59,943 nucleotides of DNA from an uncultured virus (IMG/VR IMGVR_UViG_3300012277_000001) (taxonomy: Duplodnaviria > Heunggongvirae > Uroviricota > Caudoviricetes). The notes under the pieces are model-generated. The model ran no database searches, was not told the origin of the DNA, and saw only the letters and a list, made by a program, of their open reading frames with translations. The stretch is from positions 248,001-307,943 of IMG/VR virus record IMGVR_UViG_3300012277_000001. One strand, given 5' to 3'. Of the stretch, positions 2,660 to 47,588 are shown in pieces. A program made the position numbers and the translations under genes. Each line of letters opens with the position of its first letter. Positions within the stretch are counted from its first letter, which is position 1.

Positions 2660-3766
2660 ATGTTGAACAAAATCCAAGGCGCCAAGATGGTTCTGGCTGG
2701 CACCGGTGCACCACTGGAAGACCTGCGCTACTCGAAGGGCGGCGAACTGGCACTGAGTTCCGCCACCGGCGAATTCAACGCCTCTTCCACCAAGGATCTG
2801 GCGATCCAAATCGGCAAACTGATGCAAGCTGTTCAAAGCGGCGCCATCGTTCCGGAAAACCAAATCGCCACCGCTTCGAGTGCTGAAAAGCGCGAATATC
2901 GTCGCGAAGTAATGCGCGAAGCCATGGCTTCCGACGAAAACTGGCAAGCACTGGGCGCCAACATCGCCCAACAGGTTTACGAGCAAAGCGAGCGTGACGG
3001 TTTCCTGCGCAAACTTTCGCAAGGTAACACCCTGCGTCAGGGCGAAGTACAACGCGTTCCAATGCCTCCGCATGATTCGATGGCCGTAGTTGCCACCGGT
3101 CCTGCTGGCGTCGGCTACCAGAACATTCGCGCTCGCCAATTCCTGCCTGCCGAATTCGAAATCATCGCCAACGTTCGCGTTAACGCGCTGGACATGGAAC
3201 AGGTTTCGGGCGACCTGCTGGAACACGCTTACAACGACGCGCTGCAATCCATCATGGTTCAAGAAGACCGCCTGTGGAAACAGGCCGCCGATGCCACCGT
3301 TGGCATGATGAACCCGCTGGAATACATCGCTGGTGAACTGACCTCGAAAAACCTCGGTCGTCTGCGCACCGCCGTTACCGACTGGAACCTGCCAGCCACC
3401 ACCGCGATCATCAGCAACGACTACTGGTCGGATATCATCGGTTCGAACGATTTCGCAACCATGCTCGACCCGATCACCAAGTATGATTTGGCCCTGAACG
3501 GCCAGCTGGGTACTCTGGTTGGTCTGCAACTGCTGACCGATGGTTTCCGTGCACCGAACCAGAAAGTTCTGGATCGTGGCGAAATCTACGTCGTGGCCGC
3601 TCCGGAATACCACGCTGCCTACTCCACCCGTGGCGGTATCCAATCCCGTCCAGTGGATTACGCGCACGAAGGTTCCACCGCCAAAGGCTGGATGCTGTCC
3701 GAAGCGTTCTCGTTCGTTCTGGCCAACAACCGCTCCGTCGTGAAAGGCAAGCGTCTGGTTCGTTAA
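2660..3766 (+). CDS. Major capsid protein
   Basis: 368 aa, SD GGAG, strong codon bias. HK97-like features: ...LEHAYNDALQSIMVQEDRLW... and G.LGTLVGLQLLTD. Position in head module. Confidence 0.8.
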   Translation: MLNKIQGAKMVLAGTGAPLEDLRYSKGGELALSSATGEFNASSTKDLAIQIGKLMQAVQSGAIVPENQIATASSAEKREYRREVMREAMASDENWQALGANIAQQVYEQSERDGFLRKLSQGNTLRQGEVQRVPMPPHDSMAVVATGPAGVGYQNIRARQFLPAEFEIIANVRVNALDMEQVSGDLLEHAYNDALQSIMVQEDRLWKQAADATVGMMNPLEYIAGELTSKNLGRLRTAVTDWNLPATTAIISNDYWSDIIGSNDFATMLDPITKYDLALNGQLGTLVGLQLLTDGFRAPNQKVLDRGEIYVVAAPEYHAAYSTRGGIQSRPVDYAHEGSTAKGWMLSEAFSFVLANNRSVVKGKRLVR

Positions 3767-6566: not shown

Positions 6567-8159
6567 ATGACCCTTCAAAACGGCAGTAACACGTCGGCGG
6601 GTGTTTATGGCGGCGAAGTCGATAACTCGCAATCGGCTTCTTCGACGTATCCAACCACGGGGGCCATCGTAAGTGAATCGAATCGCGGTCGAGTTGGGGT
6701 GCCCACACTCGTAACCAGCGTGTCCGAATTCCGGGCCAAATTTGGCCTGCGTGATGCATCGCTTACCTTTGGCCACTTCTGCGCCGAACGTTTCCTGAAA
6801 AAAGCACAACGACTGTGGATGTTCCGCGTCGATACCGAAGCCAGTTTTGGTAACGTTTCGATTGTGACCAAAGACGGTTTCGCCATCCCGAAAGCTGCGA
6901 CACAAGGCTATCTGGACCCGGCGACCGAACACAATCTGTTGCCAGATGAAATCGGTTTCTTCTACGCATCGGACCCCGGTAAGTGGAACAACAACCTTCG
7001 TGTGATCTGTTATCCGGATCAATACGACGTAGACAACGAACAATTCGTGGTCGAAGTTTACGAAACGAACATGAGCGTCCCTGTTGAATCCTATCGCGGC
7101 ACTTTGCGCGAAAAGGTTGACGGCCAACGTCGCCAGCTGAGCATTGCTTACCAGCTGGAAAACATGGAATCTCGCGTGCGTTTCATGGTGAACGAAAACC
7201 ACCCTGAGTACGTTGCGAGCAAAGGTGCGAAACGCCTGATCAACGCGATTGTAGAACTCGACCTCGCCTACGGTGACAATGGCCGCGCAGCAACTAGCGG
7301 CGATATCATCCAAGGTTGGGGCGAATTCGAAAACGAAGATGATTTCGAAGTTCGCATTCTGATCAACGCCGGTTACGCCGATCCGGGCGTTCAGCAACAA
7401 ATGATTCAGCTGGCAGAAACTCGCCGGGATTGCTTCGCGATTCTGGACCTGCCATCGGATCAGCAGACGGTGACGCGTGCGGTTAATTACCGTCGCAACA
7501 TCCTCAACACCAACACCAGTTTCGCCGCACTTTACGGTTCGGATATTCTGGAAGTAACCGACGACAACCAAGAAGTCTACGTGCCTTGTTCGGGTGCCAT
7601 CGCTGCTGTGTTTGCACAGTCTGACGAAGCTCGCGATGTGTTTTGGGCACCGGCTGGTGTGATTCGTGGTGTGATCGAAGAAATCAATGGCGTGCGTGTT
7701 AAATACTCGCTGCCTGAGCGCAACATTCTCGATCAGAACCAAATCAACATGATCCACAAACAAAGCGGCTACGGCTACTGCGTTTGGGGTGCACAAACTC
7801 TGCTTTCGACCAAATCGGCGTTGCAGGATGTGCCGGTTCGTCGTCTGATCAACCTGATCGAAACCACTGCGAAATACGATGTTCTGGTCGGCCTGTTCGA
7901 TCCGAACGACGAATTCCTGTGGGCGCAGTTGCGTGGTGTTGTTGAACGGATTCTCGATCCGATCAAGCGTGCTCGCGGCCTGTATTTCTCGGCTGTGTAC
8001 TGCGACAAAAACACGAACCCTCCTGCACAGATTGCAAACGGTGACGTTGCGCTGGTTTACGTGATCCAACCGACTCGCTATGCGAAGCGGATCAAGTTCA
8101 CGACTACCGTTGCGGCCACTGGCCAACTGAGCACCGCCGTCGAACAAATCGCGGCGTAA
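6567..8159 (+). CDS. Tail sheath protein
   Basis: SAGVYGGEVD N-terminus, G.WNN.LRV, AE.RRDCFAILD, WAPAG..RG, WGAQTL and VRRL motifs typical of contractile sheaths. Confidence 0.95.
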   Translation: MTLQNGSNTSAGVYGGEVDNSQSASSTYPTTGAIVSESNRGRVGVPTLVTSVSEFRAKFGLRDASLTFGHFCAERFLKKAQRLWMFRVDTEASFGNVSIVTKDGFAIPKAATQGYLDPATEHNLLPDEIGFFYASDPGKWNNNLRVICYPDQYDVDNEQFVVEVYETNMSVPVESYRGTLREKVDGQRRQLSIAYQLENMESRVRFMVNENHPEYVASKGAKRLINAIVELDLAYGDNGRAATSGDIIQGWGEFENEDDFEVRILINAGYADPGVQQQMIQLAETRRDCFAILDLPSDQQTVTRAVNYRRNILNTNTSFAALYGSDILEVTDDNQEVYVPCSGAIAAVFAQSDEARDVFWAPAGVIRGVIEEINGVRVKYSLPERNILDQNQINMIHKQSGYGYCVWGAQTLLSTKSALQDVPVRRLINLIETTAKYDVLVGLFDPNDEFLWAQLRGVVERILDPIKRARGLYFSAVYCDKNTNPPAQIANGDVALVYVIQPTRYAKRIKFTTTVAATGQLSTAVEQIAA

Positions 8160-8184: not shown

Positions 8185-8694
8185 ATGCCTAAAGTAACGT
8201 TGGACGAAGCGTACAGCCTGCTTGACCCGATGCTGAATGACAACTTTGAACTTCTGTTCACTGACATTCCGGGCGGTGGCGACGGTCGTCAATTGCGGAT
8301 TCAGTGCTTGGGTGCTGCATTGCCCGGCGCTTCCCTGCAAACTGTGGAAGTCGAACTCTTCGGCCACAAACTGATTTTTGCTGCACGTAAAACCTTCAGC
8401 CACTCGATGACGGTGGCGCTGCACGAAGTTTACGACGCACGCACTTATCAGGCCCTGAAAGATTGGGCAGCCGTAGGTCGTGCGACTCAAACTCAAACCG
8501 GTGGCTTCCACGATGCGTACATGCGCACTGCGGAATTGACCGTGTTTGACCAGACTGGTGCGGATGCTGCGAAGTGGAACATTCACCGGATGTTCCCGAC
8601 CGAAATTTCCGAATACCAGTTCGAGGGTTCGGGTGGGCAGGCACTCCGTCAGGATGCTACGTTCGCCTACGGTTACGTGGAACGTACCCTCTGA
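8185..8694 (+). CDS. Tail tube protein
   Basis: Follows the sheath; T4 gp19-like pattern (LPG....VE.....G......W......FPT.I.......D.TF.Y). Confidence 0.85.
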   Translation: MPKVTLDEAYSLLDPMLNDNFELLFTDIPGGGDGRQLRIQCLGAALPGASLQTVEVELFGHKLIFAARKTFSHSMTVALHEVYDARTYQALKDWAAVGRATQTQTGGFHDAYMRTAELTVFDQTGADAAKWNIHRMFPTEISEYQFEGSGGQALRQDATFAYGYVERTL

Positions 8695-8704
8695 TGAAAT
8701 GAAG

Positions 8705-8739
8705 AAAGCCCGGTGCAAGTTTTTGCATTGGGCTTTTTT
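8705..8739 (+). terminator. Intrinsic terminator
   Basis: aaagcccggtgcaa/ttgcattgggc stem plus T6. Confidence 0.8.
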
Positions 8740-8758
8740 CGCTTGTGTGGGGTTTGAT

Positions 8759-9262
8759 ATGCCTATCCTTTCGCTCGAAGAATTTGCAGGAAAACGCTCG
8801 GGCGACCGTAGCCCGTTGCTTGATTTTTATTGGTACTGTGTCGAGCTTCCGTTCGACTTGGACCCGTCTTATGTGGAAACGGTAACGCTGCCGGTTCCAT
8901 CCATCAACATGAAACCAGTTTTCATGGGCGCACGCTTCCGACAGTATCCGGGCTTCCGTGAATTGTCGGCCTTCGACATAACGCTATACGAAGACGTTTC
9001 TTTGCGTTCGTTCCGTTGGGTTGAAGACTGGCGTAACCGCGTGATGGACCCCGAAACAGGAACGTATTTCCTGCCGGGTAATTACAAACGAAGCATGAAA
9101 TTTGCTTTGACCGATGGGCGCACAACAGACACGCCCGTTTTGACTGCGACACTCATTGACGTTTGGCCGACTACAACCAGTGCAATTGAATTGACCAACT
9201 CTGGTGGGCAGCCGATCAAGGTTCGACAAAACTTTGCGATTGACGACGTTTCTTACGACTGA
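8759..9262 (+). CDS. Tail tube-like protein (tube initiator, T4 gp54-like)
   Basis: Tube fold motifs (ITLYED......W.EDW, DVWPTT...I.L); ATG 8759 after the terminator. Confidence 0.65.
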   Translation: MPILSLEEFAGKRSGDRSPLLDFYWYCVELPFDLDPSYVETVTLPVPSINMKPVFMGARFRQYPGFRELSAFDITLYEDVSLRSFRWVEDWRNRVMDPETGTYFLPGNYKRSMKFALTDGRTTDTPVLTATLIDVWPTTTSAIELTNSGGQPIKVRQNFAIDDVSYD

Positions 9263-9273
9263 GGGGATACACC

Positions 9274-10056
9274 ATGAAATTCGATAACTCTAACCTGCCA
9301 TCGCGCCTGATTCCGTACGCGGTGAAAACCATCGAAGCGAATCCGTTTCGGCCCCTGCATCTGCCTTACCTTTCTGAGGCAATTCTGACCAAGAACGATG
9401 CGCCGCTGATCGAGGCGGTGGGTATGGTTATCGACATGGACGTAAACCAGCTGACGGATGGGGATTTTTTCTACATTCTGACATGGCTGCGTTTCAATTC
9501 CCGCGACCTGCCGATTTATGCCGAATGGGAATGCGGCGGTATCGTTTTCAAACGGGCGGGTGATGAATCTGGCAAGATTTACACCATGGAAGAAATCGAC
9601 ACCATGGCCCAGCAATACCACGATGCACGTGGCACCGAGGCTGAAGGCCTGATGGAAGATCCTAGCAAGATTGAATGGATCGAAGAAGACTGCGACCACT
9701 ACAACAAACAGGATGTAGAGTTTGCGGATTTCGAAGTCAAGTTCATGGATGAATCCGAACTCGACCCACGGCTGGATTATCCACGGGTGCGGGATCTGGT
9801 GGCCTACAAGGAACTCGGGTCCGACGTACGCAACCAGAAGATCATCGGCCCCGTTCGCTATCTGCGTGAAGGCAATACGCTGCATGAGCGTCTGCATTCT
9901 CTCGAAAAGATCGACATGGAATTGTTCGATAAAGCGAGCCGTGCCCACTTCACGTTTGACCACGGTATTCTGCAACGCGTTTACAAGAAATGCGAACGCT
10001 GCGGCACCGAACATCCGTTCAACGTGAACATCGACGCGCATTCGTTCTTCGTGTGA
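9274..10056 (+). CDS. Baseplate hub assembly protein, T4 gp26/gp51-like
   Basis: LPSR, LT.GDF.Y.L..LR..S and YPR motifs; C-terminal CxxC followed by FF. Confidence 0.65.
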   Translation: MKFDNSNLPSRLIPYAVKTIEANPFRPLHLPYLSEAILTKNDAPLIEAVGMVIDMDVNQLTDGDFFYILTWLRFNSRDLPIYAEWECGGIVFKRAGDESGKIYTMEEIDTMAQQYHDARGTEAEGLMEDPSKIEWIEEDCDHYNKQDVEFADFEVKFMDESELDPRLDYPRVRDLVAYKELGSDVRNQKIIGPVRYLREGNTLHERLHSLEKIDMELFDKASRAHFTFDHGILQRVYKKCERCGTEHPFNVNIDAHSFFV

Positions 10057-11024
10057 TGAAAACGAACCTCGATGCGTCGTACATCGAAGTCGGGGATTTG
10101 CTCACAGGCAACCCGGCTAAAGATGATTTCTACGACTTCGACCGTATTTATTTGCGGCAGTTTACCCTTCGTGAATTGCCGTTGCTGCATACCGGTATGA
10201 ACGCCAAGACTCGGCCGCATCAGCACATTATTCGTGCGGTGCAAATGTGCTGCAACGTTGATATCGACCAATTGACAGACGGCGACTTCATGTACCTGAT
10301 GGCCCGTCTGCGTAAAAGTTCGTTCCCTGAATTTCCGGTGCGTGCGCAATACACGTGCTCCAACATGGTTTACGTGAACAGCAAAAACAACATCGGTTTC
10401 GGGATCAACCCCAAGGATGCAAAACGGTTGGGGTTCACGCTTCAGCCGTGCGGCCACCAGCAGTCAGAAGTGGTGCCGCATACGCAGGTGCTGACCAATA
10501 CACTGCCCGACGACAATAACCGCCTGAAGCATGATCGTATTTCGCTTCCTCGCGTGGGTACACTGACCGACTATTACGAATACGTGGAAGACTTCCCACG
10601 TTTCAAATACGTTGGTGACATTGCCCGTTGGGTAAAGCCCGGTAAAACATTCCGAGCAAAGCTGAATTATCTGATGGCACAGCCGGACATGAAGCTGTTC
10701 CAAGAAATCGAGAAAGTGAAGAACGATTGGTTCCATGGAGTCACGGAAAAAGTTCGCTTGCGTTGCGGACAGTGCAACCACGTGATGTTCCATGAAAGCA
10801 GCCCGTCGATGCTTCAGTTTTTCGCTGATAATTCCGACAAAGACATTTATAACATGGCCTACAACCTCATGTCGCGATTCGGCACGACGGTTGATCTGGA
10901 TATGCCTGTGCAATGGTTCCTGTATACGCATTCGGTTCTCGCGGCAGACGTACGCGACCAAGAACAGAAAGCGAAAGCGGCAGCAGCAGGCGGCGGAAAG
11001 GTCATGGGCACCCGTAGAAGGTAA
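10056..11024 (+). CDS. Second baseplate hub assembly protein (paralog of upstream gene)
   Basis: TGATG coupling; shares QLTDGDF.Y.L/M..LR..S, PRV and CxxC...FF motifs. Confidence 0.65.
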   Translation: MKTNLDASYIEVGDLLTGNPAKDDFYDFDRIYLRQFTLRELPLLHTGMNAKTRPHQHIIRAVQMCCNVDIDQLTDGDFMYLMARLRKSSFPEFPVRAQYTCSNMVYVNSKNNIGFGINPKDAKRLGFTLQPCGHQQSEVVPHTQVLTNTLPDDNNRLKHDRISLPRVGTLTDYYEYVEDFPRFKYVGDIARWVKPGKTFRAKLNYLMAQPDMKLFQEIEKVKNDWFHGVTEKVRLRCGQCNHVMFHESSPSMLQFFADNSDKDIYNMAYNLMSRFGTTVDLDMPVQWFLYTHSVLAADVRDQEQKAKAAAAGGGKVMGTRRR

Positions 11025-11029
11025 AAAGC

Positions 11030-14000
11030 ATGGCTGCACTTGAGGCACTGAATGCAATCGTAGATAAGCATGGCTCCGAGCACGACGCAAAAGAGCCACC
11101 AAAGCGGCGCAGTATTCATGAGCAGACCCCGCGCCTCATGCAGCATGCGCACGTTCCACAAAATGATGGTGTGTCTTTTTCTGGCCAGAAAAAACATTCT
11201 TATGCACGTTCTGGCCAGCGCAATGAAAACCAGAAAACCAATCTGCCTGCCGTTCGTACCCAAGCACAGCAGCACGACCGCCAAGCGGAAGCAATCGACG
11301 GCCAAACGCAGGTAATTCGTGCACAGGCAGTTGGTCAACAAAAGCAATCGAACCTGATGCTGCAACAATCTGGTTTGATGCAGGATCAGTTGCACGCTAC
11401 GCAGGAAATGTCGGACGTAATCAATCGTCTGGCAGAATACATGCAAAAGCAAATGACCCGCCCCGAAGCCAAAGTGCAGCGGATGGGTAACACGTACGAA
11501 GGCGAATTCACGAAGATCAACGAAAAGCAGTTGGCGGCGCAAGAACGCCGTATGACTGTGCTCGACGAACTCCGTGAAAAGCGTCGTGAAATGCAGCGTA
11601 TTCGCGCATCGAAACAGGAACGTGATCGCCTCGGTCGATTCACGCGCAGCGCCCCCAAAGGCCCCAAACTGCAACGTGTCGGTGGGGGTGTGCGTGGAAT
11701 TGGCGGGATGCTCGAAGGCGGCATGATGGAAGGCATGGGCGGACGTGCTGCTGGTATGGCGGCGCGGGCTGCATGGCCCCTGCTTGCACTGGCTGCTGCC
11801 TACTACGGTTCCAAAGCAATGACTGCCGCTTCGGATAATTATACGTTCGAAAAGAAAGATTCGAACATGGTTACTCGCGGCTGGCAAAACACCAAGGATT
11901 GGGTGGGTGATAAATTCCGCGACGATCCGGGCGAATCTTTCCTCGACAAAGCCACGGTTAAATCGGGCGGTAAGCAGCAAGGCGAACTGATGGGCGAAAG
12001 TGCCCGTCATAAAGATTTTGGTTCGATCAGCGCTGCATTCGAATCAGGCAATAAAGGCGTGGGCACCGTGTCCACCGGCAAAGGTGACAAAGGCGGTGTT
12101 TCCTACGGTAAGCACCAGCTAAGTTCCAAAGCCGGGACCATGACCGCATTTTTGCGTTCGGAAGATGGCCAGAAATACTACAACGATTTCCGGGGTATGG
12201 CACCCGGCTCCGAAGAGTTCAACAAGAAATACAAAGAGGTTGCAGACCGCGACGGCGAAGGCTTTGACAAAGCGCAACAGGCGTTCACCACAAAGACCCA
12301 CTACAACCCGGTCGCTGCGTGGTTTGAAAAGCAATACGATATCAAACTGGATGAACGTTCCCGCGCTCTGAAAGAATGCGTTTATTCGGTTGCAGTTCAG
12401 TACGGTTTGAGCACCGCCAAGTCTGTTTTGGCTGATGCATTTGGTAATCGCGACATTACCAAAATGCCCGATGCCGAAATGATCGACCGCGTGCAGGAAA
12501 CTCGCGCCGCGACCGTGGGTACACGTTTCCGTTCCAGTAGCCAAGACGTGCAGGATAGCGTTTACAAACGCGCCGGTACTGAAAAAGCTGCGCTGCTGAA
12601 AATGTTGAACGAAGAACAAGGCGGCCCCGGTTCTGCCAAGGCTTCCGGTTCCGGCATCGGCTCGCAGTATTCGCAGCAAATGATTGGCGTTTACGGTGGT
12701 AAAACATCGGGCGCAAATCAGAGCGGGACCGCATCTAACGGCACGGTCGGTGTTATGGCCATGCCTCAAGGTGGTGGCGGTGGAATGTCTGGCGCTGGCG
12801 ACGAAGCCGGGGGCGGAACTGCTGCTGGAATGCTGTCGCCTGCAAATGGCGCGCTGTATGCGTTGGGTCAGAAACACGTACGCCCCAACGACAACTCGGT
12901 AAATATGTCTGGTTTGAATGATAAATTCAAGCAAGCATTTTTCACCATGGTTGGTGACTGGGTACAAAACAGCGGAGGCACCGTTGTAAACGTGGCATCT
13001 GCTTTCCGTACGCGTGCTGAACAGGAAAAGCTGTGGATTAAATACGGACGTAACACCAAACGCGTTGCACGTCCGGGCACCAGCCGCCACGAATCAGGTT
13101 TTGCAATCGACATTGACCGCAATTCTGCGAGTGCGATGGAAGGTGCGGGCCTGTTCAAGAAATACGGTTTCCATCGACCACTTTCCAACGAGCCGTGGCA
13201 CGTTGAAATGATTGGTGCAGGGAAAGGCGGTGCGGGTGGTGGCCCTCAAGTTGCGGCGGCCAATGCCAGCCCCCAACTGATGCAGCAGCAAGCATCGCAG
13301 GAAATGGACAAAGCCGCTGAGGCCACTGTAAACCGCGCCGAAGAAAACACGAAAGGTACGGAAAAAACATGGTCGCAAAAGCTTAACGAGAAAAAGCCTC
13401 CTACCGATTCTGAGACTGGCGGCACCTCCAAAGCAGCCGAAGCAAACGGCGCTAAAGCCAAGGCCGGACTTGAGGAAGAGGAAGAAGAGGAAGAGGTAGG
13501 CGAAAAGCCAGATGACATTGGTGAAAACGACACCAAAATAATCAACAAAGAGGTTATGCCTCCGACCGTTGATGTTATGGGCGGTGCACCGACTACGCGC
13601 ACACCTGAAGAGCAGGCGCTTTATGAGCAATACCTGAAACAGGCTGGCGGTGATCCTCGCGGTGTTCCTGAAACGATTTCGAACCCCGGTCAAAATCCGT
13701 TCGGCAGTCCAGAATTGCAACGCACGAATCCGGGGTCTGGAACGCCTACGTGGTCACAGCGTAATGCAGGGCGCGGGGCTAATGGTGTACCGGGTTCCAA
13801 TGGCGGCTATACGTCTGGTCAGTATGGGCAGCGTGCACGGCCATGGTCGCAAAGCCAAACCGGTCGGGCGATTACGGGCGCCGCAACGAAAATAGGCAAC
13901 GTTTATGGAATGGGTGGGTTCGGTACAATGGCCCCCGGTGTGTTCGGTGGGTTGCGGAAAGTTGACGGAAAAGTAAACGATGTTTTGAACAAGGTTCCGG

Positions 14001-14587
14001 GCCTCCGTGAGCTTTCCCGTTTGCCGGGTATTCCACAAATTCCACGGCTGTCTAATGGCCTGCCGAGTTTCGGAAATATCGTGACGGGCGTTGCGGATCG
14101 TGCAGCTGGTTTGTTTGGCGGCAACGATGCGCCTGTAACTGTTCCTGCGAATGAACGCCCCAAAGTGATGAACGGAATGAAAGTCACTTATGACGGTCCA
14201 GCCGTAACATCGACCGATCAAATTGGCACAACCTCCGTTAACGCTTCTGTGCCTCCAATGTCGCCAGCTTCGCCTACCTATTACAACAATGATGCACCTG
14301 TTGTAACGCGCAGCGCAGGCGCCCCGGTAGCCACGCTTTCTTCCCCGGCGCCGACTTCGTTAGCGCCTGCACCTGATAAGATCGAACGTAATTCGTACGA
14401 TGGTGTGCAGAAAGTTGCCATTAGTTCTTCGGATGTTCCAATGGGCGGTAGTGCACCTGCACCAGCAGCACCGGGGGCACCGGGGGCCGGTAGTGGTGGC
14501 GCGAAAAACGATATGCCGTCAATCGACGACGTGCCTGCAATCATGGATGAATACGGGCTTCTCTTTGTGAATATGGGAATGGTGTAA
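11030..14587 (+). CDS. Tape-measure/baseplate hub protein with VgrG3-C-like muramidase and peptidase M15 domains
   Basis: Coiled-coil N-terminus; ES...G.VSTGKGD.GGVSYG.HQL (~12017-12616); SAFRT..EQ..L, PG.S.HE.G.AID and EPWH motifs (~12878-13210). Confidence 0.75.
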   Translation: MAALEALNAIVDKHGSEHDAKEPPKRRSIHEQTPRLMQHAHVPQNDGVSFSGQKKHSYARSGQRNENQKTNLPAVRTQAQQHDRQAEAIDGQTQVIRAQAVGQQKQSNLMLQQSGLMQDQLHATQEMSDVINRLAEYMQKQMTRPEAKVQRMGNTYEGEFTKINEKQLAAQERRMTVLDELREKRREMQRIRASKQERDRLGRFTRSAPKGPKLQRVGGGVRGIGGMLEGGMMEGMGGRAAGMAARAAWPLLALAAAYYGSKAMTAASDNYTFEKKDSNMVTRGWQNTKDWVGDKFRDDPGESFLDKATVKSGGKQQGELMGESARHKDFGSISAAFESGNKGVGTVSTGKGDKGGVSYGKHQLSSKAGTMTAFLRSEDGQKYYNDFRGMAPGSEEFNKKYKEVADRDGEGFDKAQQAFTTKTHYNPVAAWFEKQYDIKLDERSRALKECVYSVAVQYGLSTAKSVLADAFGNRDITKMPDAEMIDRVQETRAATVGTRFRSSSQDVQDSVYKRAGTEKAALLKMLNEEQGGPGSAKASGSGIGSQYSQQMIGVYGGKTSGANQSGTASNGTVGVMAMPQGGGGGMSGAGDEAGGGTAAGMLSPANGALYALGQKHVRPNDNSVNMSGLNDKFKQAFFTMVGDWVQNSGGTVVNVASAFRTRAEQEKLWIKYGRNTKRVARPGTSRHESGFAIDIDRNSASAMEGAGLFKKYGFHRPLSNEPWHVEMIGAGKGGAGGGPQVAAANASPQLMQQQASQEMDKAAEATVNRAEENTKGTEKTWSQKLNEKKPPTDSETGGTSKAAEANGAKAKAGLEEEEEEEEVGEKPDDIGENDTKIINKEVMPPTVDVMGGAPTTRTPEEQALYEQYLKQAGGDPRGVPETISNPGQNPFGSPELQRTNPGSGTPTWSQRNAGRGANGVPGSNGGYTSGQYGQRARPWSQSQTGRAITGAATKIGNVYGMGGFGTMAPGVFGGLRKVDGKVNDVLNKVPGLRELSRLPGIPQIPRLSNGLPSFGNIVTGVADRAAGLFGGNDAPVTVPANERPKVMNGMKVTYDGPAVTSTDQIGTTSVNASVPPMSPASPTYYNNDAPVVTRSAGAPVATLSSPAPTSLAPAPDKIERNSYDGVQKVAISSSDVPMGGSAPAPAAPGAPGAGSGGAKNDMPSIDDVPAIMDEYGLLFVNMGMV

Positions 14588-17687: not shown

Positions 17688-18431
17688 ATGCCGGGTATCA
17701 TGTCGGATCGTTGGATCGAAACCATGTGCCAGCCACAACGCAAAGCGCTGTTTATCAACGGTGAGTTTTATGCGTGGGCCAATACACACAAGGCACGTAA
17801 AGCCCGCGAAGTTCCACCGTGCGGCGCCCGTATTCTGAATGAACGTTTCATCGACCAAACGCCGATGATCAGCCCGTTCTCGAACAAGCAGGTTTCGCAG
17901 GTCGAGTACAAAGCTGTAGGCGACGACGACGGCGAACGTTCTGTACACAAGATCATTCCCTACGGTCTGAGCAGCTACGGCTACGACATTCGCTGCGGTA
18001 ACGAATTCAAGATTTTCACCAACCTGAATACCACGGTTGTTGATCCAAAGAATTTCACCGAAGACAACTTCGTAACGAAGACGGTCCGCGACGGCCAAGC
18101 AGTGATCATTCCGCCGAACTCTTTTGCGCTGGCAAACACGCCTGAGCAATTCAAGATCGACCGTGACACGCTGGTGGTGTGCTTGGGCAAATCGACGTAT
18201 GCCCGCTGTGGCATTATCGTAAACGTTACGCCATTAGAGCCTGAATGGGAAGGCTCACTCACGCTGGAATTCAGCAACACCACGCCGCTTCCTGCCATGA
18301 TTTATGCGGGTGAGGGCTGTGCACAAATTCTGTTCTTCTCCGGCGACGATGACTGCGATATTTCGTACGCAGATCGCAAGGGCAAGTACATGAATCAGTC
18401 GGCAGTTCCGACCTCCCCGAAAATGCTGTGA
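17688..18431 (+). CDS. dcd: dCTP deaminase
   Basis: [42 protein letters not shown] and YADRKGKY motifs. Confidence 0.95.
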
Positions 18432-19617: not shown

Positions 19618-19631
19618 GTAATTTAATGGTA
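19618..19631 (+). promoter_or_regulatory. Candidate phage late promoter GTAATTTAATGGTA
   Basis: Near-identical to 6517-6530. Confidence 0.45.
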
Positions 19632-19678
19632 GGGTTCGCATTTATTGCGTTCATCTTTCCACCAACAAAGGATCTTTT

Positions 19679-20608
19679 ATGAACGTCCAGAACTATACTG
19701 GCGTGCTGGCTGAGATTGTCGCAGCCATGCAGGAGGCCGGTGATCCCTCTGCGATTCGCCGCATCCAAGTCACCGAAGATGAAATGGATGAAATCGTTAA
19801 ATCTGGCGCGTTCCGGAAAACGACCAATACCCATTATGGCGGTTCTGATACTCCGGTGTTCTCCAACATCGAATCTGGCTCCGACGGTAAAATCATTTCG
19901 ATGTATTTGGGCGGTACGCTGATTTGCCTCGGCCCTTGGCAACCACGCGGTGCACTGGCCACCGTTACCTACGGCCCATTGACTGTTCAGCAAAAAGCAA
20001 AAAGCAAATTCGTCCGTACCGTTGACGGCAAAGATTACATGCTGGTTGGCACCGGCAATCCCGCTGACGATTTTGTACTCGGATCGAACGCTAACATCGA
20101 ACTCGGTTTGGCTGTTCGCAAAGTCAAAGATTCGACCTACTACGGCGACGGCGCAGGCGGCTTCGATATCGAGTTGGACGAAGCACTGGGCGAGTCGTGG
20201 AACTTCGCGGTTACTGTCGGCTCGCTGAAAGACGGTGTAACTGACGTAACGGAAATGTACGACATTTCCCTTTACATCGACACCGATGCTACCGGTGAAG
20301 AAAATGCCATCAAGTGGGATTTGCAGTACACCCCGCGCCTCGACGGCAAAGGCAAAAACTATGCATGGTACAACCAAGGCATTCGCGTAATCAACGACGC
20401 GACGACCAACCCGGACGGCTCCGTTTCGCAGATGATTCAGCGCTACGAATTCCCGTTCATTTCCAACGCACTTCCTGCCGATACCGAGCGCACCAAAACG
20501 GGTGTTCCGCTGGGAATCTATGGCATCAAATTGGAAGCCCGCCCACGCTTGGCAACTGGTGACGCAGTTTCCGTTGAAGTAATGGCGACCGTCGCAAAAA
20601 AGTCGTAA
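19679..20608 (+). CDS. Probable virion structural protein (short, zero-frame product)
   Basis: SD AAGGA; beta-rich; ends GCA AAA AAG TCG TAA. Confidence 0.75.
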   Translation: MNVQNYTGVLAEIVAAMQEAGDPSAIRRIQVTEDEMDEIVKSGAFRKTTNTHYGGSDTPVFSNIESGSDGKIISMYLGGTLICLGPWQPRGALATVTYGPLTVQQKAKSKFVRTVDGKDYMLVGTGNPADDFVLGSNANIELGLAVRKVKDSTYYGDGAGGFDIELDEALGESWNFAVTVGSLKDGVTDVTEMYDISLYIDTDATGEENAIKWDLQYTPRLDGKGKNYAWYNQGIRVINDATTNPDGSVSQMIQRYEFPFISNALPADTERTKTGVPLGIYGIKLEARPRLATGDAVSVEVMATVAKKS

Positions 20609-20649
20609 AACCTGTTCCGCGACGTTCGCTGGTTGTCGGTGGTTCAGGT
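20596..20649 (+). other. Programmed -1 ribosomal frameshift signal (A AAA AAG plus downstream hairpin)
   Basis: Heptamer 20596-20602 is in the correct phase; stem acctg..ccgc.gacg / tgtc.gtgg..caggt at 20610-20649. Confidence 0.8.
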
Positions 20650-21408
20650 ACGACCCAAGATGGAAACGGTTTATACGTTCAGTCTAATGGTTTCGTACCT
20701 GCGTCTGTTGCTGCGGCCATCACTGGTGTTGCTGCCGGTTTAGACCGGTACATCGCCATAGGTTCGCAAGTCTACGAATCGGTCGATAAAACCGAGTGGA
20801 CTGCAATGGATGTAAATCTCGCATTTTCCCAAATTGTTTTCGCCGATAAGTTCTACGCATCTGTAGACGGTGTTGGGATCTATGTATTGGATTCAGACTG
20901 GAAGCTGGTCTATGAGTTTGATGGGAATTTCGTCTGTGCGCGCAACATTGGCCAGCCTGCATTCGGCACTGATCGGGGAACGGTTATCGTCGGCCCTGAA
21001 TGGAGCGAAATTTCTGTAGGTACGGGCCGTGTTTGGTTGACGAATCAAGCGGCAGGATTCCGCTTGGCAACGCACAATGGTGACGTACTGGAAACGTTCG
21101 CCGGTCCCGTGACTTCGCTTGTGTCTGAGGGCACGACGAACATCGAGGGCCTAGACATTTCCGGTTGCTGGTACGATGCAAAAAATGGCTACTCGGTTAT
21201 TTGTGGATCGTTCGGCGGGCAGCCTGTTTTCGCCACGTACAAAAACCGCTGGATCTTCGAGTTCTCGGATCTTGAGGCGCCTGCTGTTTCACTGTGTGAT
21301 GGCTACGTGCTGACCCACGATGCTGTGTACAGCACTACGGATTATTCGAGCTTCAACCTGCTGCACAGGTTCGAACAGTTCGATGCAAAAACTTTGGTGC
21401 TGGTTTGA
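20602..21408 (+). CDS. -1 frame extension (beta-propeller-like); fusion product ~576 aa
   Basis: Frame is open 20578-21405 with no ATG/GTG/TTG before 20806; 20602-20805 translates to protein-like sequence. Confidence 0.75.
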   Translation, partial: VVKPVPRRSLVVGGSGTTQDGNGLYVQSNGFVPASVAAAITGVAAGLDRYIAIGSQVYESVDKTEWTAMDVNLAFSQIVFADKFYASVDGVGIYVLDSDWKLVYEFDGNFVCARNIGQPAFGTDRGTVIVGPEWSEISVGTGRVWLTNQAAGFRLATHNGDVLETFAGPVTSLVSEGTTNIEGLDISGCWYDAKNGYSVICGSFGGQPVFATYKNRWIFEFSDLEAPAVSLCDGYVLTHDAVYSTTDYSSFNLLHRFEQFDAKTLVLV

Positions 21409-21412
21409 AAGT

Positions 21413-21445
21413 GGCCCTCGGTTCTCAAGGAATCGGGGGCTTTTT
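21413..21445 (+). terminator. Intrinsic terminator
   Basis: ggccctcggttc/gaatcgggggc stem plus T5. Confidence 0.8.
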
Positions 21446-21496
21446 CGTTTGCGGAGCATACTGTAAATACTTGTCATACAATCATGGAGTCTCGCT

Positions 21497-22636: not shown

Positions 22637-22978
22637 ATGGAAATTCAAGAACAGCTGGAAGCTGTGCGGGCATATCGCGGTACGGTCCGCGTTACCATCG
22701 GTAACGATACGGTGGACGCTTCCGTTCTTAGTACGCAGCATACACCGGAACAAAAAGGTATACCGGAGCATATCGACGCCTCGTTTCGCTTGGCCGCCAA
22801 GCCGGAACAGCTGATCAGTATCCAACAGCATGTTATTGACGACATGTTGATGCAAAACTTCTGCACGGTTTACGTGCTGGCGCAATCCCGTAGTAGCTGG
22901 ACCTTGCGCGAGACGATAGAACTTGTAAAGAGTGGGCAGAACTATATGTGGCAGATTCACGCGAGGATTTATCTGTGA
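22637..22978 (+). CDS. Hypothetical protein
   Basis: SD AAGGA. Confidence 0.7.
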   Translation: MEIQEQLEAVRAYRGTVRVTIGNDTVDASVLSTQHTPEQKGIPEHIDASFRLAAKPEQLISIQQHVIDDMLMQNFCTVYVLAQSRSSWTLRETIELVKSGQNYMWQIHARIYL

Positions 22979-23427
22979 GTAGCTTTACAACGCCGCTGGT
23001 TGCGGAATTCGAGAACGACGGTATTCATTACGTCATTTGGCAAATCTTCGCCTATGCAATCGGCATGCTGGGTTCCGGAATTGTGGTCAGTGTTCCAGTT
23101 GGCTATCGCACCGATCTGGCGTCCGTGCCGTGGTGGATTCGCTGGCTATTGCCACCGAACGGGAAGTACGGGAAAGCGGCTGTCATTCACGATTACATTT
23201 GCTCGTACAGAACTGTAAATATCAATGGGACCAACGTCTACGTTACGCGTAAGACTGGCGACCTGATCTTCCTCGAAGCCATGGGTGTACTCAATGTTCC
23301 CGCGTGGCAGAAATGGTCGATGTTTGCAGCGGTCCGCGCCTATGCAATTGCGACCGGCATCGACCGGGCGGATCAGAAGAAAGCGGCAAACGATCCGAGC
23401 TATTTTACTGATGTGCTAGCCGCGTAA
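22975..23427 (+). CDS. DUF1353 family protein
   Basis: VP.G..TDLASVP, AAVIHDY, D.IFLEAM..L.V and AVR motifs; GTGA overlap start. Confidence 0.85.
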   Translation: MSSFTTPLVAEFENDGIHYVIWQIFAYAIGMLGSGIVVSVPVGYRTDLASVPWWIRWLLPPNGKYGKAAVIHDYICSYRTVNINGTNVYVTRKTGDLIFLEAMGVLNVPAWQKWSMFAAVRAYAIATGIDRADQKKAANDPSYFTDVLAA

Positions 23428-46548: not shown

Positions 46549-47001
46549 ATGAAAACTGGTAAGTCGTATCCGATCACCATGGACGTTAATCGCCGCGATA
46601 TAGATTTCGACGACCGTGTGGAAACGCACGACCAGCACGGCGATTTCGATCTGGAAATTGTGCTACGTGACGACGCTTGCCGCCGTAAATTCGCAACCGT
46701 GATGATTCCTGCCGGTCGCATGATGGCGGCATTGGGCAACCGCTCACACGTCCCGTGCACAATCGAATTCGGGGAACATTTCCCGCTGTTTGGGAAATCC
46801 CGCGAAACCAAAACGATCTGGATTAAAGAACAGAAAAAAACCGGCGGTAAAAGCGAACCCAAGATTCCTGCAAAGTACATAGCCGAAGGCTGGGAATATT
46901 ACAGCGGTTACGGCAGTTCCCGTTCTGGTGAATTGCGCGATGGCCAGTGGCATTACCCATGCACCCTGCAACGTTTTGTCGAAGAAGAACCCGAGGAATA
47001 A
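46549..47001 (+). CDS. Hypothetical protein
   Basis: SD GAGG. Confidence 0.75.
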   Translation: MKTGKSYPITMDVNRRDIDFDDRVETHDQHGDFDLEIVLRDDACRRKFATVMIPAGRMMAALGNRSHVPCTIEFGEHFPLFGKSRETKTIWIKEQKKTGGKSEPKIPAKYIAEGWEYYSGYGSSRSGELRDGQWHYPCTLQRFVEEEPEE

Positions 47002-47003
47002 AA

Positions 47004-47588
47004 ATGGCACGTGCAAAAAAGAAAGTCGAAGAACCGGCCATCGACCCAGCTATTGCGTGGAGCGCCAGCGAAACCGTACGCCTTGAAGGGCTGCGCGAAC
47101 TGTTCAAAGCGACCGGCCTGCAAATCGACGAACTGAAGGCCGCGCAACATCGCGGAATCAACGTCGAAGAATTCCGCCGCCGCGTTAAAGCCGAAGAAAA
47201 ACGCCAAGACAAAATCGTGGCGCGTTTGAAAGCAGCGACCGAAGAAATGGGCGGCACCGTTTCCAGCGTCGAATCCACCGGCATTTTCGGTGACGCGCAA
47301 TACACGTGGTATTTCAAATTCAAGCTGAGCAACAAATGGTCACTTGAATTTACGCTGTGCCGTGGGCCGGAAGCAGACGCCTACGATTTGCCGCTGTCGT
47401 TCCAGTGGCGTGTCTGGTGCCATGGTCGCAAGGCATTCGGGCGAACCGCTTTCGTCACCCCATACAACGATCACGATTATCACGATTGTGAATCGGTGCC
47501 TGAACTCAAAAAGGCAATTAAAATGGCCGTCAAGTGGTTGAACGACACACGCGGCTCCGACAACAAAAAAGAAATCAAACTCGCCTGA
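47004..47588 (+). CDS. Hypothetical protein
   Basis: SD GAGGA. Confidence 0.75.
   Translation: MARAKKKVEEPAIDPAIAWSASETVRLEGLRELFKATGLQIDELKAAQHRGINVEEFRRRVKAEEKRQDKIVARLKAATEEMGGTVSSVESTGIFGDAQYTWYFKFKLSNKWSLEFTLCRGPEADAYDLPLSFQWRVWCHGRKAFGRTAFVTPYNDHDYHDCESVPELKKAIKMAVKWLNDTRGSDNKKEIKLA

Follow-up and report, generated by a model that had tools for sequence, protein, structure and literature searches.

Probable -1 programmed ribosomal frameshifting, conserved among Lu11/HRDY3-like jumbo phages and predicted to add a beta-propeller domain to a 309-residue protein

Background

Programmed ribosomal frameshifting, and its use to place accessory domains at the C-termini of phage proteins, are already well known. 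In dnaX and in the IS3-family elements, the efficient bacterial -1 signal consists of the heptamer A_AAA_AAG followed by a 3' hairpin, and the stimulatory structure is typically located about 5-9 nt 3' of the heptamer. In T7 and T3 (capsid proteins 10A/10B) and in lambda (G/GT), a -1 slip near the end of a late gene produces a minor form with a longer C-terminus; in T7 the 10B extension is short and lacks a fold of its own, and G/GT is a chaperone encoded between the tube and tape-measure genes. The shift in gp17.1 of the Bacillus phage SPP1 is +1. Here we describe a locus in a stretch of 59,943 nucleotides from an uncultured virus (IMG/VR record IMGVR_UViG_3300012277_000001), the whole of which is called the window below. 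In this locus, a gene for a 309-residue protein (the N gene, encoding the N part) is followed in the -1 frame by a coding sequence for 268 further residues (the C part), and A_AAA_AAG is present at the junction.

According to the report on SPP1 (PMC8718954), an end-of-gene frameshift adds an accessory domain to the major tail protein gp17.1 to make gp17.1* in a 3:1 ratio, and this domain, which is dispensable, was proposed to contact carbohydrates of the host surface. In the lactococcal phages of the 936 group, as described in PMC6669499, a programmed frameshift after an immunoglobulin (Ig)-like adhesin domain gives a longer form with an additional binding module, the major tail protein extension TpeX; the number of modules per virion depends on the frameshift efficiency, and host-specific binding was shown experimentally.

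The present locus shares with dnaX of Escherichia coli (tau/gamma) and with orfA-orfB of the IS3 family the identical heptamer, a stem-loop a few nucleotides downstream and a slip that would involve tandem Lys-tRNAs, although the genes are unrelated to those of the window. In dnaX the slip shortens the protein and a Shine-Dalgarno (SD)-like sequence about 10 nt upstream of the heptamer helps, whereas here the slip would add 268 residues and a conserved upstream SD-like sequence is missing; a three-element signal of the dnaX type was thus rejected. A -1 slip near the end of a gene and a C-terminal extension are shared with T7/T3 10A/10B and lambda G/GT. A tail chaperone of the lambda G/GT type was rejected as well, since the tube genes lie at about 8.2-9.3 kb of the window, the 309-codon gene is found at 19.7 kb, behind a dCTP deaminase gene, and its size is wrong. 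The likeness to SPP1 is that a frameshift at the end of a gene adds a folded domain. However, the SPP1 protein is a siphovirus tail tube protein of the virion and receives an FN3 (fibronectin type III) domain of about 100 residues, whereas in the jumbo myovirus studied here distant similarity hints at a place in the virion and the predicted domain is a propeller of about 245 residues. TpeX differs in host, protein family and cargo fold, and binding by the cargo encoded in the window may be proposed by analogy.

Results and discussion

The two-frame unit and the proposed mechanism

The window is the terminal part of a 308-kb jumbo Pseudomonas myophage of the Lu11/HRDY3 type, and comprises the final 59.9 kb of one 307,943-bp contig. 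The closest public genomes are those of Pseudomonas phage HRDY3 (81% nucleotide identity across 83% of a 3-kb query) and Pseudomonas phage Lu11 (69%); both are jumbo myophages. The unit considered here has the following features:

19668-19672, + strand: SD-like AAGGA, 6 nt 5' of the ATG of the N gene
19679-20608, + strand: N gene, 0 frame, short form of 309 aa, read from the sequence
20596-20602, + strand: slippery heptamer A_AAA_AAG in the X_XXY_YYZ phase (phase 2 in every extension-bearing locus)
20603-20609, + strand: 7-nt spacer containing the 0-frame stop TAA (20606-20608)
20610-20649, + strand: putative stimulatory hairpin of 13 bp, starting 7 nt past the G of the heptamer
20602-21408, + strand: -1 frame extension of 268 codons and a stop; Pro/Lys/Arg-rich linker (VVKPVPRR), then predicted beta-propeller
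20665-21405, + strand: predicted beta-propeller domain (residues 24-270 of the modelled C part)
21413-21451, + strand: terminator-like hairpin (21413-21441) and T tract, 5 nt past the stop of the extension

With a probability of roughly 0.85, judged from sequence comparison, a conserved -1 programmed ribosomal frameshift yields both the 309-aa protein and a 576-aa form with a propeller, and this event has been unannotated so far. The N gene ends GCA (20594-20596) AAA AAG (to 20602) TCG TAA, with the heptamer in phase. The -1 frame is closed by TGA at 20575-20577, is open from 20578 to TGA at 21406-21408 (276 codons), and has no ATG, GTG or TTG before 20806. Apart from the count of 276 codons and the closing TGA, these points, and the stem-loop starting 7 nt past the heptamer, were given in a preliminary description of this DNA and are reproduced when the sequence is read directly. 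The product lengths of 309 and about 576 aa given there also follow from the sequence, the predicted long form after the slip being 308 + 268 = 576 aa.

In the proposed mechanism, one transcription unit (19679-21408, terminator at 21413) would give two proteins. When Lys-tRNAs are on AAA and AAG and the 13-bp hairpin, 7 nt downstream, is at the mRNA entrance, a fraction of ribosomes would slip back by one base onto A_AAA_AAA. The slipped ribosomes would continue in the -1 frame through the short Pro/Lys/Arg linker and the propeller of about 245 residues to complete 576 aa, and the unslipped ribosomes would terminate one codon later at UAA to release 309 aa. Phage-encoded tRNAs were not found by ARAGORN in the 308-kb genome; slipping would thus depend on the host Lys-tRNA.

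Conservation of the slip signal

Scans of IMG/VR and of metagenome contigs with an N-part alignment gave 12 and 2 loci, respectively, and a wider alignment added L033. Identical copies were merged (L004 = L016 = L003; L002 = L008, which is Lu11; L014 = L013), and L012, which runs off the end of its contig, is uninformative for the architecture. The frameshift arrangement is present in 11 distinct sequences (the window, HRDY3, Lu11, L003, L005, L006, L007, L009, L010, L011 and L017), each of which has an in-phase A_AAA_AAG, a 0-frame stop nearby and a -1 frame open for 276-283 codons. It is kept in all of the relatives having the C part (11/11), and the heptamer is invariant among them; conservation of this sequence in homologs was a check set beforehand in the preliminary description. 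Quantitative comparisons were made with ten of the 11 sequences (55-88% nucleotide identity); L009, which differs from L006 at 81 of 1724 positions and has the identical slip site and hairpin, was left out. AAA is preceded by GCA, GTA or ACA (Ala, Val or Thr), a codon whose third base is A in 10/10, and the 0-frame stop follows the heptamer directly in Lu11 and L017 (0 codons) and after 1 codon in the others.

The slip site and the hairpin are the most conserved stretch of the 1.7-kb unit: the mean pairwise nucleotide identity in 30-nt windows is 0.82-0.89 over 20588-20662 versus 0.44-0.80 elsewhere in the 1.73 kb. Because the conserved peptide KPVPRRSLVVGGSG contributes to this identity, the codon test was restricted to columns with an invariant and degenerate amino acid. 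At such columns the codon is invariant in 7/14 cases within 20596-20660 versus 17/143 elsewhere in the two open reading frames (ORFs; Fisher p = 0.0014), and the mean codon identity is 0.81 versus 0.54 (Mann-Whitney p = 1.2e-4). The sequences are related and the p-values are therefore only indicative, although both sets of columns come from the same sequences. By this comparison, the signal appears to be conserved beyond what the encoded proteins require.

The putative hairpin consists of an outer stem, ACCUG/CAGGU, and an inner stem, CCGCGACG/UGUC.GGUG, with one bulged G and a loop of 9 nt. It follows a 7-nt spacer in every sequence examined. Pairing is kept in 126 of the 130 cells, and one-sided compatible changes were found in three pairs (U-A to U-G, G-U to A-U, A-U to G-U). 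In all seven sequences that were folded individually, the hairpin is the minimum-free-energy structure (-15.3 to -19.7 kcal/mol; z from -1.9 to -2.9). No Rfam match was obtained within 20400-20900.

To gauge chance, 395 ORF-based gene proxies were taken from the entire genome of 307,943 bp. They contain 48 copies of AAAAAAG: 38 with the harmless AAA-AAA-G phase, 5 with phase 1 and 5 with the slip phase. Past the five slip-phase heptamers the -1 frame is open for 270 codons at the N gene, and for 4, 5, 23 and 39 codons at the others. The other slip-phase copies are at genome positions 66946, 159556, 180147 and 295015 (39, 4, 5 and 23 open codons, respectively); the last corresponds to position 47015 of the window, in the gene 46947-47588.

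One alternative is transcriptional slippage, in which the RNA polymerase adds one A to the A6 run and the resulting mRNA encodes the 576 aa in a single frame. Recoding by RNA polymerase on A runs occurs in bacteria and in IS elements. The protein product (AKK-VVKP) would be identical, so that evidence at the protein level does not separate the two mechanisms. However, the run is just six A's, and A6 is not special for the polymerase in this genome, where there are 109 runs of at least A6 and 3 runs of at least A7. Furthermore, the conserved phase-specific heptamer with its G, the third-position A of the preceding codon and the hairpin 7 nt downstream fit slipping by the ribosome and have no role in slippage by the polymerase, and we regard the latter as quite unlikely.

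Relatives without the extension and a fused homolog

Two relatives with N parts of about 44% amino-acid identity, L013 and L033, lack the heptamer and, over 3 kb, also a C part. In both, the N gene stops at the same position and a terminator-like hairpin with a T tract comes next, which suggests that the short form can stand by itself.

A profile built from nine C parts and run against 1.84 billion representative proteins gave 2965 hits at E <= 0.001 and 682 at E <= 1e-10. One of them, P0019 (582 aa), matches the profile over residues 309-582. In BLASTP, residues 1-308 of the N part align with residues 1-305 of P0019 (40% identity, E 4e-71) and residues 2-268 of the C part with residues 305-580 (30% identity, E 3e-30), so that the two alignments meet at one residue. 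From the V of '..VEV/VQA..' to '..GGSG/GGNG', the junction counted by hand has 26 residues in both the window and P0019 and aligns gap-free. Lys-Lys-Val of the window corresponds to Tyr-Lys-Glu in P0019; thus, an A6 run is impossible there in P0019. In the linker of P0019, residues 305-314 (KEPTPTPKKT) include Pro-Lys-Lys-Thr, and an A-rich coding run could exist at that point. The source of P0019 is one 115-kb contig of a read-archive assembly, and the protein is alone in its cluster. From the comparison of these sequences, the predicted long form has a counterpart elsewhere in an ordinary uninterrupted protein (P0019), and the short form has one in the N-only relatives.

When 13 N parts were placed in a maximum-likelihood tree, the ten rows with the frameshift clustered together (support 87/92), L013 paired with L033 (100/100), and P0019 was on a long branch. 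The arrangement has been retained while the third codon positions diverged by more than 50%.

Translation of the gap and lack of an own start for the extension

The preliminary description had stated that the apparent gap at 20609-20805 reads as protein, and the substitution pattern bears this out. In the gap (20653-20805), the -1 frame has pairwise differences of 0.29/0.23/0.53 at codon positions 1/2/3, and the same measure gives 0.35/0.29/0.59 in the annotated ORF (20806-21405). In the 213 nt past the heptamer, the -1 frame has no stop in any of the ten sequences (0 in 10/10), and the 0 frame and the +1 frame have 1-4 and 2-5 stops, respectively. These patterns indicate coding selection on the -1 frame of the gap that reaches as far as the slip site.

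It is also conceivable that there are two separate genes, the propeller being translated from its own start (ATG 20806 or a non-canonical codon upstream, perhaps by termination-reinitiation), with the heptamer a by-product of Lys-Lys. The public records do annotate two genes, and the 0-frame stop near the opening of the -1 frame could permit coupling. The N gene itself has its ATG and an SD-like motif kept in 10/10 sequences (duplex energy -4.3 to -7.3 kcal/mol, scored with an assumed 9-nt motif as the anti-SD sequence). For the C part, however, there is no positionally conserved start. ATG 20806, the first ATG/GTG/TTG of the -1 frame past 20578 in the window, is shared only with L006 and L007 and is ACG in HRDY3; the first start-type codon lies from 36 to 270 nt past the heptamer, varying by genome, and the SD scores of the candidate starts are mostly weak. 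By this survey, the downstream ORF has neither a conserved start nor a conserved ribosome-binding site of its own. Moreover, about 68 codons 5' of 20806, including the best-conserved peptide of the C part, appear to be under -1 coding selection, the synonymous sites of the signal are constrained, and in P0019 the two parts are continuous in a single frame, with their junction at the slip point. Two separate genes are therefore very unlikely. An error of assembly or sequencing in the homopolymer (a true A7 within a single 576-aa gene), which the preliminary description had listed as an alternative, can be dismissed despite the frequency of such miscalls, because 11 distinct sequences, taken both from isolate genomes and from several metagenome assemblies, have A6-G and a stop 0-1 codons later, and the N-only relatives end at this position.

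The expectation in the preliminary description that standard annotation would call two genes is borne out by the HRDY3 and Lu11 records, which list two 'hypothetical protein' genes, the second of which starts differently in each. All of the ten database homologs of the C part (10/10) are called as truncated proteins of 178-226 aa.

Predicted folds of the two parts

A model of the C part made with a nine-sequence alignment is all-beta (pLDDT 68.8, pTM 0.69). Blocks over about residues 41-190 average pLDDT 75-97, and values under 50 are found in the first 32 residues and in most of the last 48. Among the 500 best Foldseek matches of this model in the PDB, 467 have E <= 0.001, and the top ones are WD40, Kelch and designed six-bladed propellers (TM 0.39-0.56). 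VIA-align against 48,161 chains gave Z values of up to 15.3, with 607 chains at Z >= 8; the best match is virginiamycin B lyase (198 residues aligned, rmsd 3.0), and almost all of the top 50 are propellers (WD40, YVTN, NHL, YWTD). Matches in BFVD are mostly uncharacterised phage proteins, with a few BNR-like, DUF6242 and tail proteins, and giant-virus WD40 proteins. The ESM Atlas gave weak leads to WD40/YVTN/BNR-like clusters (best score 0.91, with recognition below the usual level). From the models, the extension is predicted to be a beta-propeller, an independently folded domain of about 245 residues; six or seven blades may be guessed from the strand count of the model and the top hits.

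Among the 150 listed hits, 6-20 stretches per protein match the blade motif that the C part has at about profile positions 40-105, and some of the long multi-repeat hits carry the Pfam families DUF6242 or Beta-prop_HVO_0234. These multi-repeat propellers have the blade motif and the propeller model in common with the C part; the Pfam family match is not shared, since the window C part has 0 Pfam families above the gathering threshold, including DUF6242, Beta-prop_HVO_0234 and BNR. Two of nine relatives match Beta-prop_HVO_0234 (best E 0.0016). To our knowledge, no function has been assigned to DUF6242 or Beta-prop_HVO_0234. Pfam and PHROGs assigned no family to the N and C parts of the window, and a PDB sequence search with the C part gave 0 hits.

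The model of the N part is weak (pLDDT 57.5). Foldseek returned 0 matches to it at E <= 0.001, VIA-align gave Z <= 6.8 to Ig-like sandwiches, too low to mean more than a common arrangement, and the ESM Atlas gave no usable hit. With low confidence, the model suggests an N-terminal alpha/beta region followed by an Ig-like beta-sandwich at about residues 137-309. The PDB sequence search with the N part gave gp16 'Linking protein 1' (E 0.0099) and a mobile intron protein (E 0.13), which are leads only.

A possible place in the virion

In tblastn, residues 121-307 of the N part match EST35_0383 of phage PA5oct (29% identity over 61% of the N part, E 5e-7), the record of which carries the label 'structural protein, ESI-MS/MS'. 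Further matches, for residues 99-303, are to proteins annotated as surface or virion proteins in Yersinia phage fHe-Yen9-04 and Xanthomonas phage Xoo-sp14. The matching proteins have different N-terminal domains, and a virion role of the N part is suggested by this distant similarity alone.

The preliminary description also suggested that the two forms would be made at a fixed ratio and that the long form may carry a receptor- or carbohydrate-binding tip. We infer that slipping takes place, that the protein is located in the virion and that the propeller is an accessory module on a subset of its copies. For the last of these points, namely an accessory binding module on some copies of a virion surface protein, the chances seem to us evenly divided; it draws on the analogy with SPP1 gp17.1* and lactococcal TpeX and on the weak PA5oct link. 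A further speculation, which we think unlikely, is that the frameshift works as a stoichiometry device for decorating the virion: most copies of the Ig-like surface protein would be bare, and a set fraction would carry a propeller lectin that makes the first, reversible contact with glycans of the Pseudomonas surface. As slipping at A_AAA_AAG depends on the supply and modification of the host Lys-tRNA, the propeller density on the progeny would report the state of the producing cell, and adsorption properties would vary from burst to burst.

Points on both sides and implications

The fusion of the N part to a propeller by frameshifting, proposed in the preliminary description, is supported by the conserved signal, the synonymous constraint, the coding pattern of the gap, the lack of a conserved start, P0019 and the propeller models. 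Several observations weigh against ribosomal frameshifting or soften the evidence for it. Part of the nucleotide conservation at the signal is accounted for by the conserved peptide. None of the 13 pairs of the hairpin has a double compensatory change, so there is no evidence from covariation, and all 500 shuffles reach the observed values, so that this control cannot separate the hairpin from plain conservation. The stability of the hairpin is moderate, as 2-14 of 200 shuffles fold as well. A conserved SD-like stimulator upstream was not found in the tail sequences of the relatives; GAGG is present about 16-19 nt upstream of the heptamer in L003 and Lu11, and the window has GAAG. The frameshift-bearing sequences form one group of the tree, so the arrangement is best read as inherited once rather than as having arisen several times independently. 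Only one protein, P0019 of a single assembly, represents the in-frame fusion; it came from the profile search, whereas searches by words gave no longer, fused homolog of either part. Finally, proteomic labels for both genes are absent from the Lu11 and HRDY3 records; the Lu11 record has no such labels even for head and tail genes.

No description of this frameshift was found in the literature covered, which does not include the Lu11 genome announcement. HRDY3 is named nowhere in that literature. Among the papers on Lu11 and frameshifting, the PaBG paper alone deals with these phages, and its remarks on frameshifting refer to dnaX; papers on jumbo phages with programmed ribosomal frameshifting do not treat this gene, as judged from title and abstract. 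Frameshifting of dnaX is mentioned in PMC7412058.

If the frameshift is as proposed, the annotation of a conserved gene pair would be corrected in Lu11, HRDY3 and at least nine related jumbo-phage genomes, where it now consists of two hypothetical proteins and an unexplained gap. A jumbo myovirus would also gain a well-supported case of recoding that lies outside its tail-chaperone genes. A natural series is made up of the N part alone, the N part with a frameshifted C part and the two parts in frame, and it could help in asking what a phage would gain from a fixed mixture of short and long forms. Should the propeller serve to bind the host, the long form would become a candidate factor in adsorption or host range for phages infecting Pseudomonas putida-group bacteria.

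Transcription signals around the unit

No terminator-like site lies between the N gene and the extension. In the scanned stretch, there is one promoter-like match (20277-20305, inside the N gene) versus 2.0 expected by chance. The 13-nt core of the Lu11 'middle/late promoter' has 11 matches in the window with <=3 mismatches versus 9.6 expected; one of the 11 is at 19621-19633, 5' of the N gene. As the count is not above chance, no promoter is claimed.

The hairpins with T tracts 3' of the N-only genes (3935-3975 in L013 and about 3930-3975 in L033) include the loop/stem sequence ACTGTAAAGGGTGAGTA, which by eye resembles the annotated 'putative middle/late promoter' of Lu11 (CTGTAAATGGTAGGTA, L002 3880-3895). 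In the window, ACTGTAAATACTTG is found directly past the terminator 21413-21441 (stretch 21413-21480). It may be that intergenic stretches in this group of phages hold terminators and late-promoter motifs close to each other.

Neighbouring genes

The large ORFs of the window are all on the + strand. The following were identified:

2660-3766, + strand: major head protein (PHROGs)
6567-8159, + strand: tail sheath protein (PHROGs)
about 8185-9262, + strand: two tail tube paralogs (PHROGs, both phrog_45)
in the window, + strand: baseplate-like protein (PHROGs)
11030-14587, + strand: 1185-aa protein; VgrG3-like PF21277, E 1.9e-53 (residues 331-519), and VanY, E 5.2e-9 (Pfam)
17688-18431, + strand: dCTP deaminase (PHROGs)
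22948-23427, + strand: DUF1353 protein; PF07087, E 1.4e-24, and phrog_1158 'tail assembly chaperone'

The DUF1353 gene lies about 1.5 kb downstream of the frameshift unit, and its Lu11 counterpart is labelled 'putative tail assembly protein'. This neighbour is a weak hint of a morphogenetic neighbourhood.

A second pair of tandem paralogs on the + strand (9274-11024, both phrog_13792) lies beside the phrog_45 tube pair (8185-9262). In both pairs the ORFs overlap only when the second is read from an upstream TTG or ATG start, and the matches begin later. The gene of the 1185-aa protein is downstream of baseplate-hub-like genes, and its Lu11 counterpart is labelled 'putative endolysin'; with its VgrG3-like and VanY (D-Ala-D-Ala carboxypeptidase) regions, the protein is probably a tail-borne cell-wall hydrolase.

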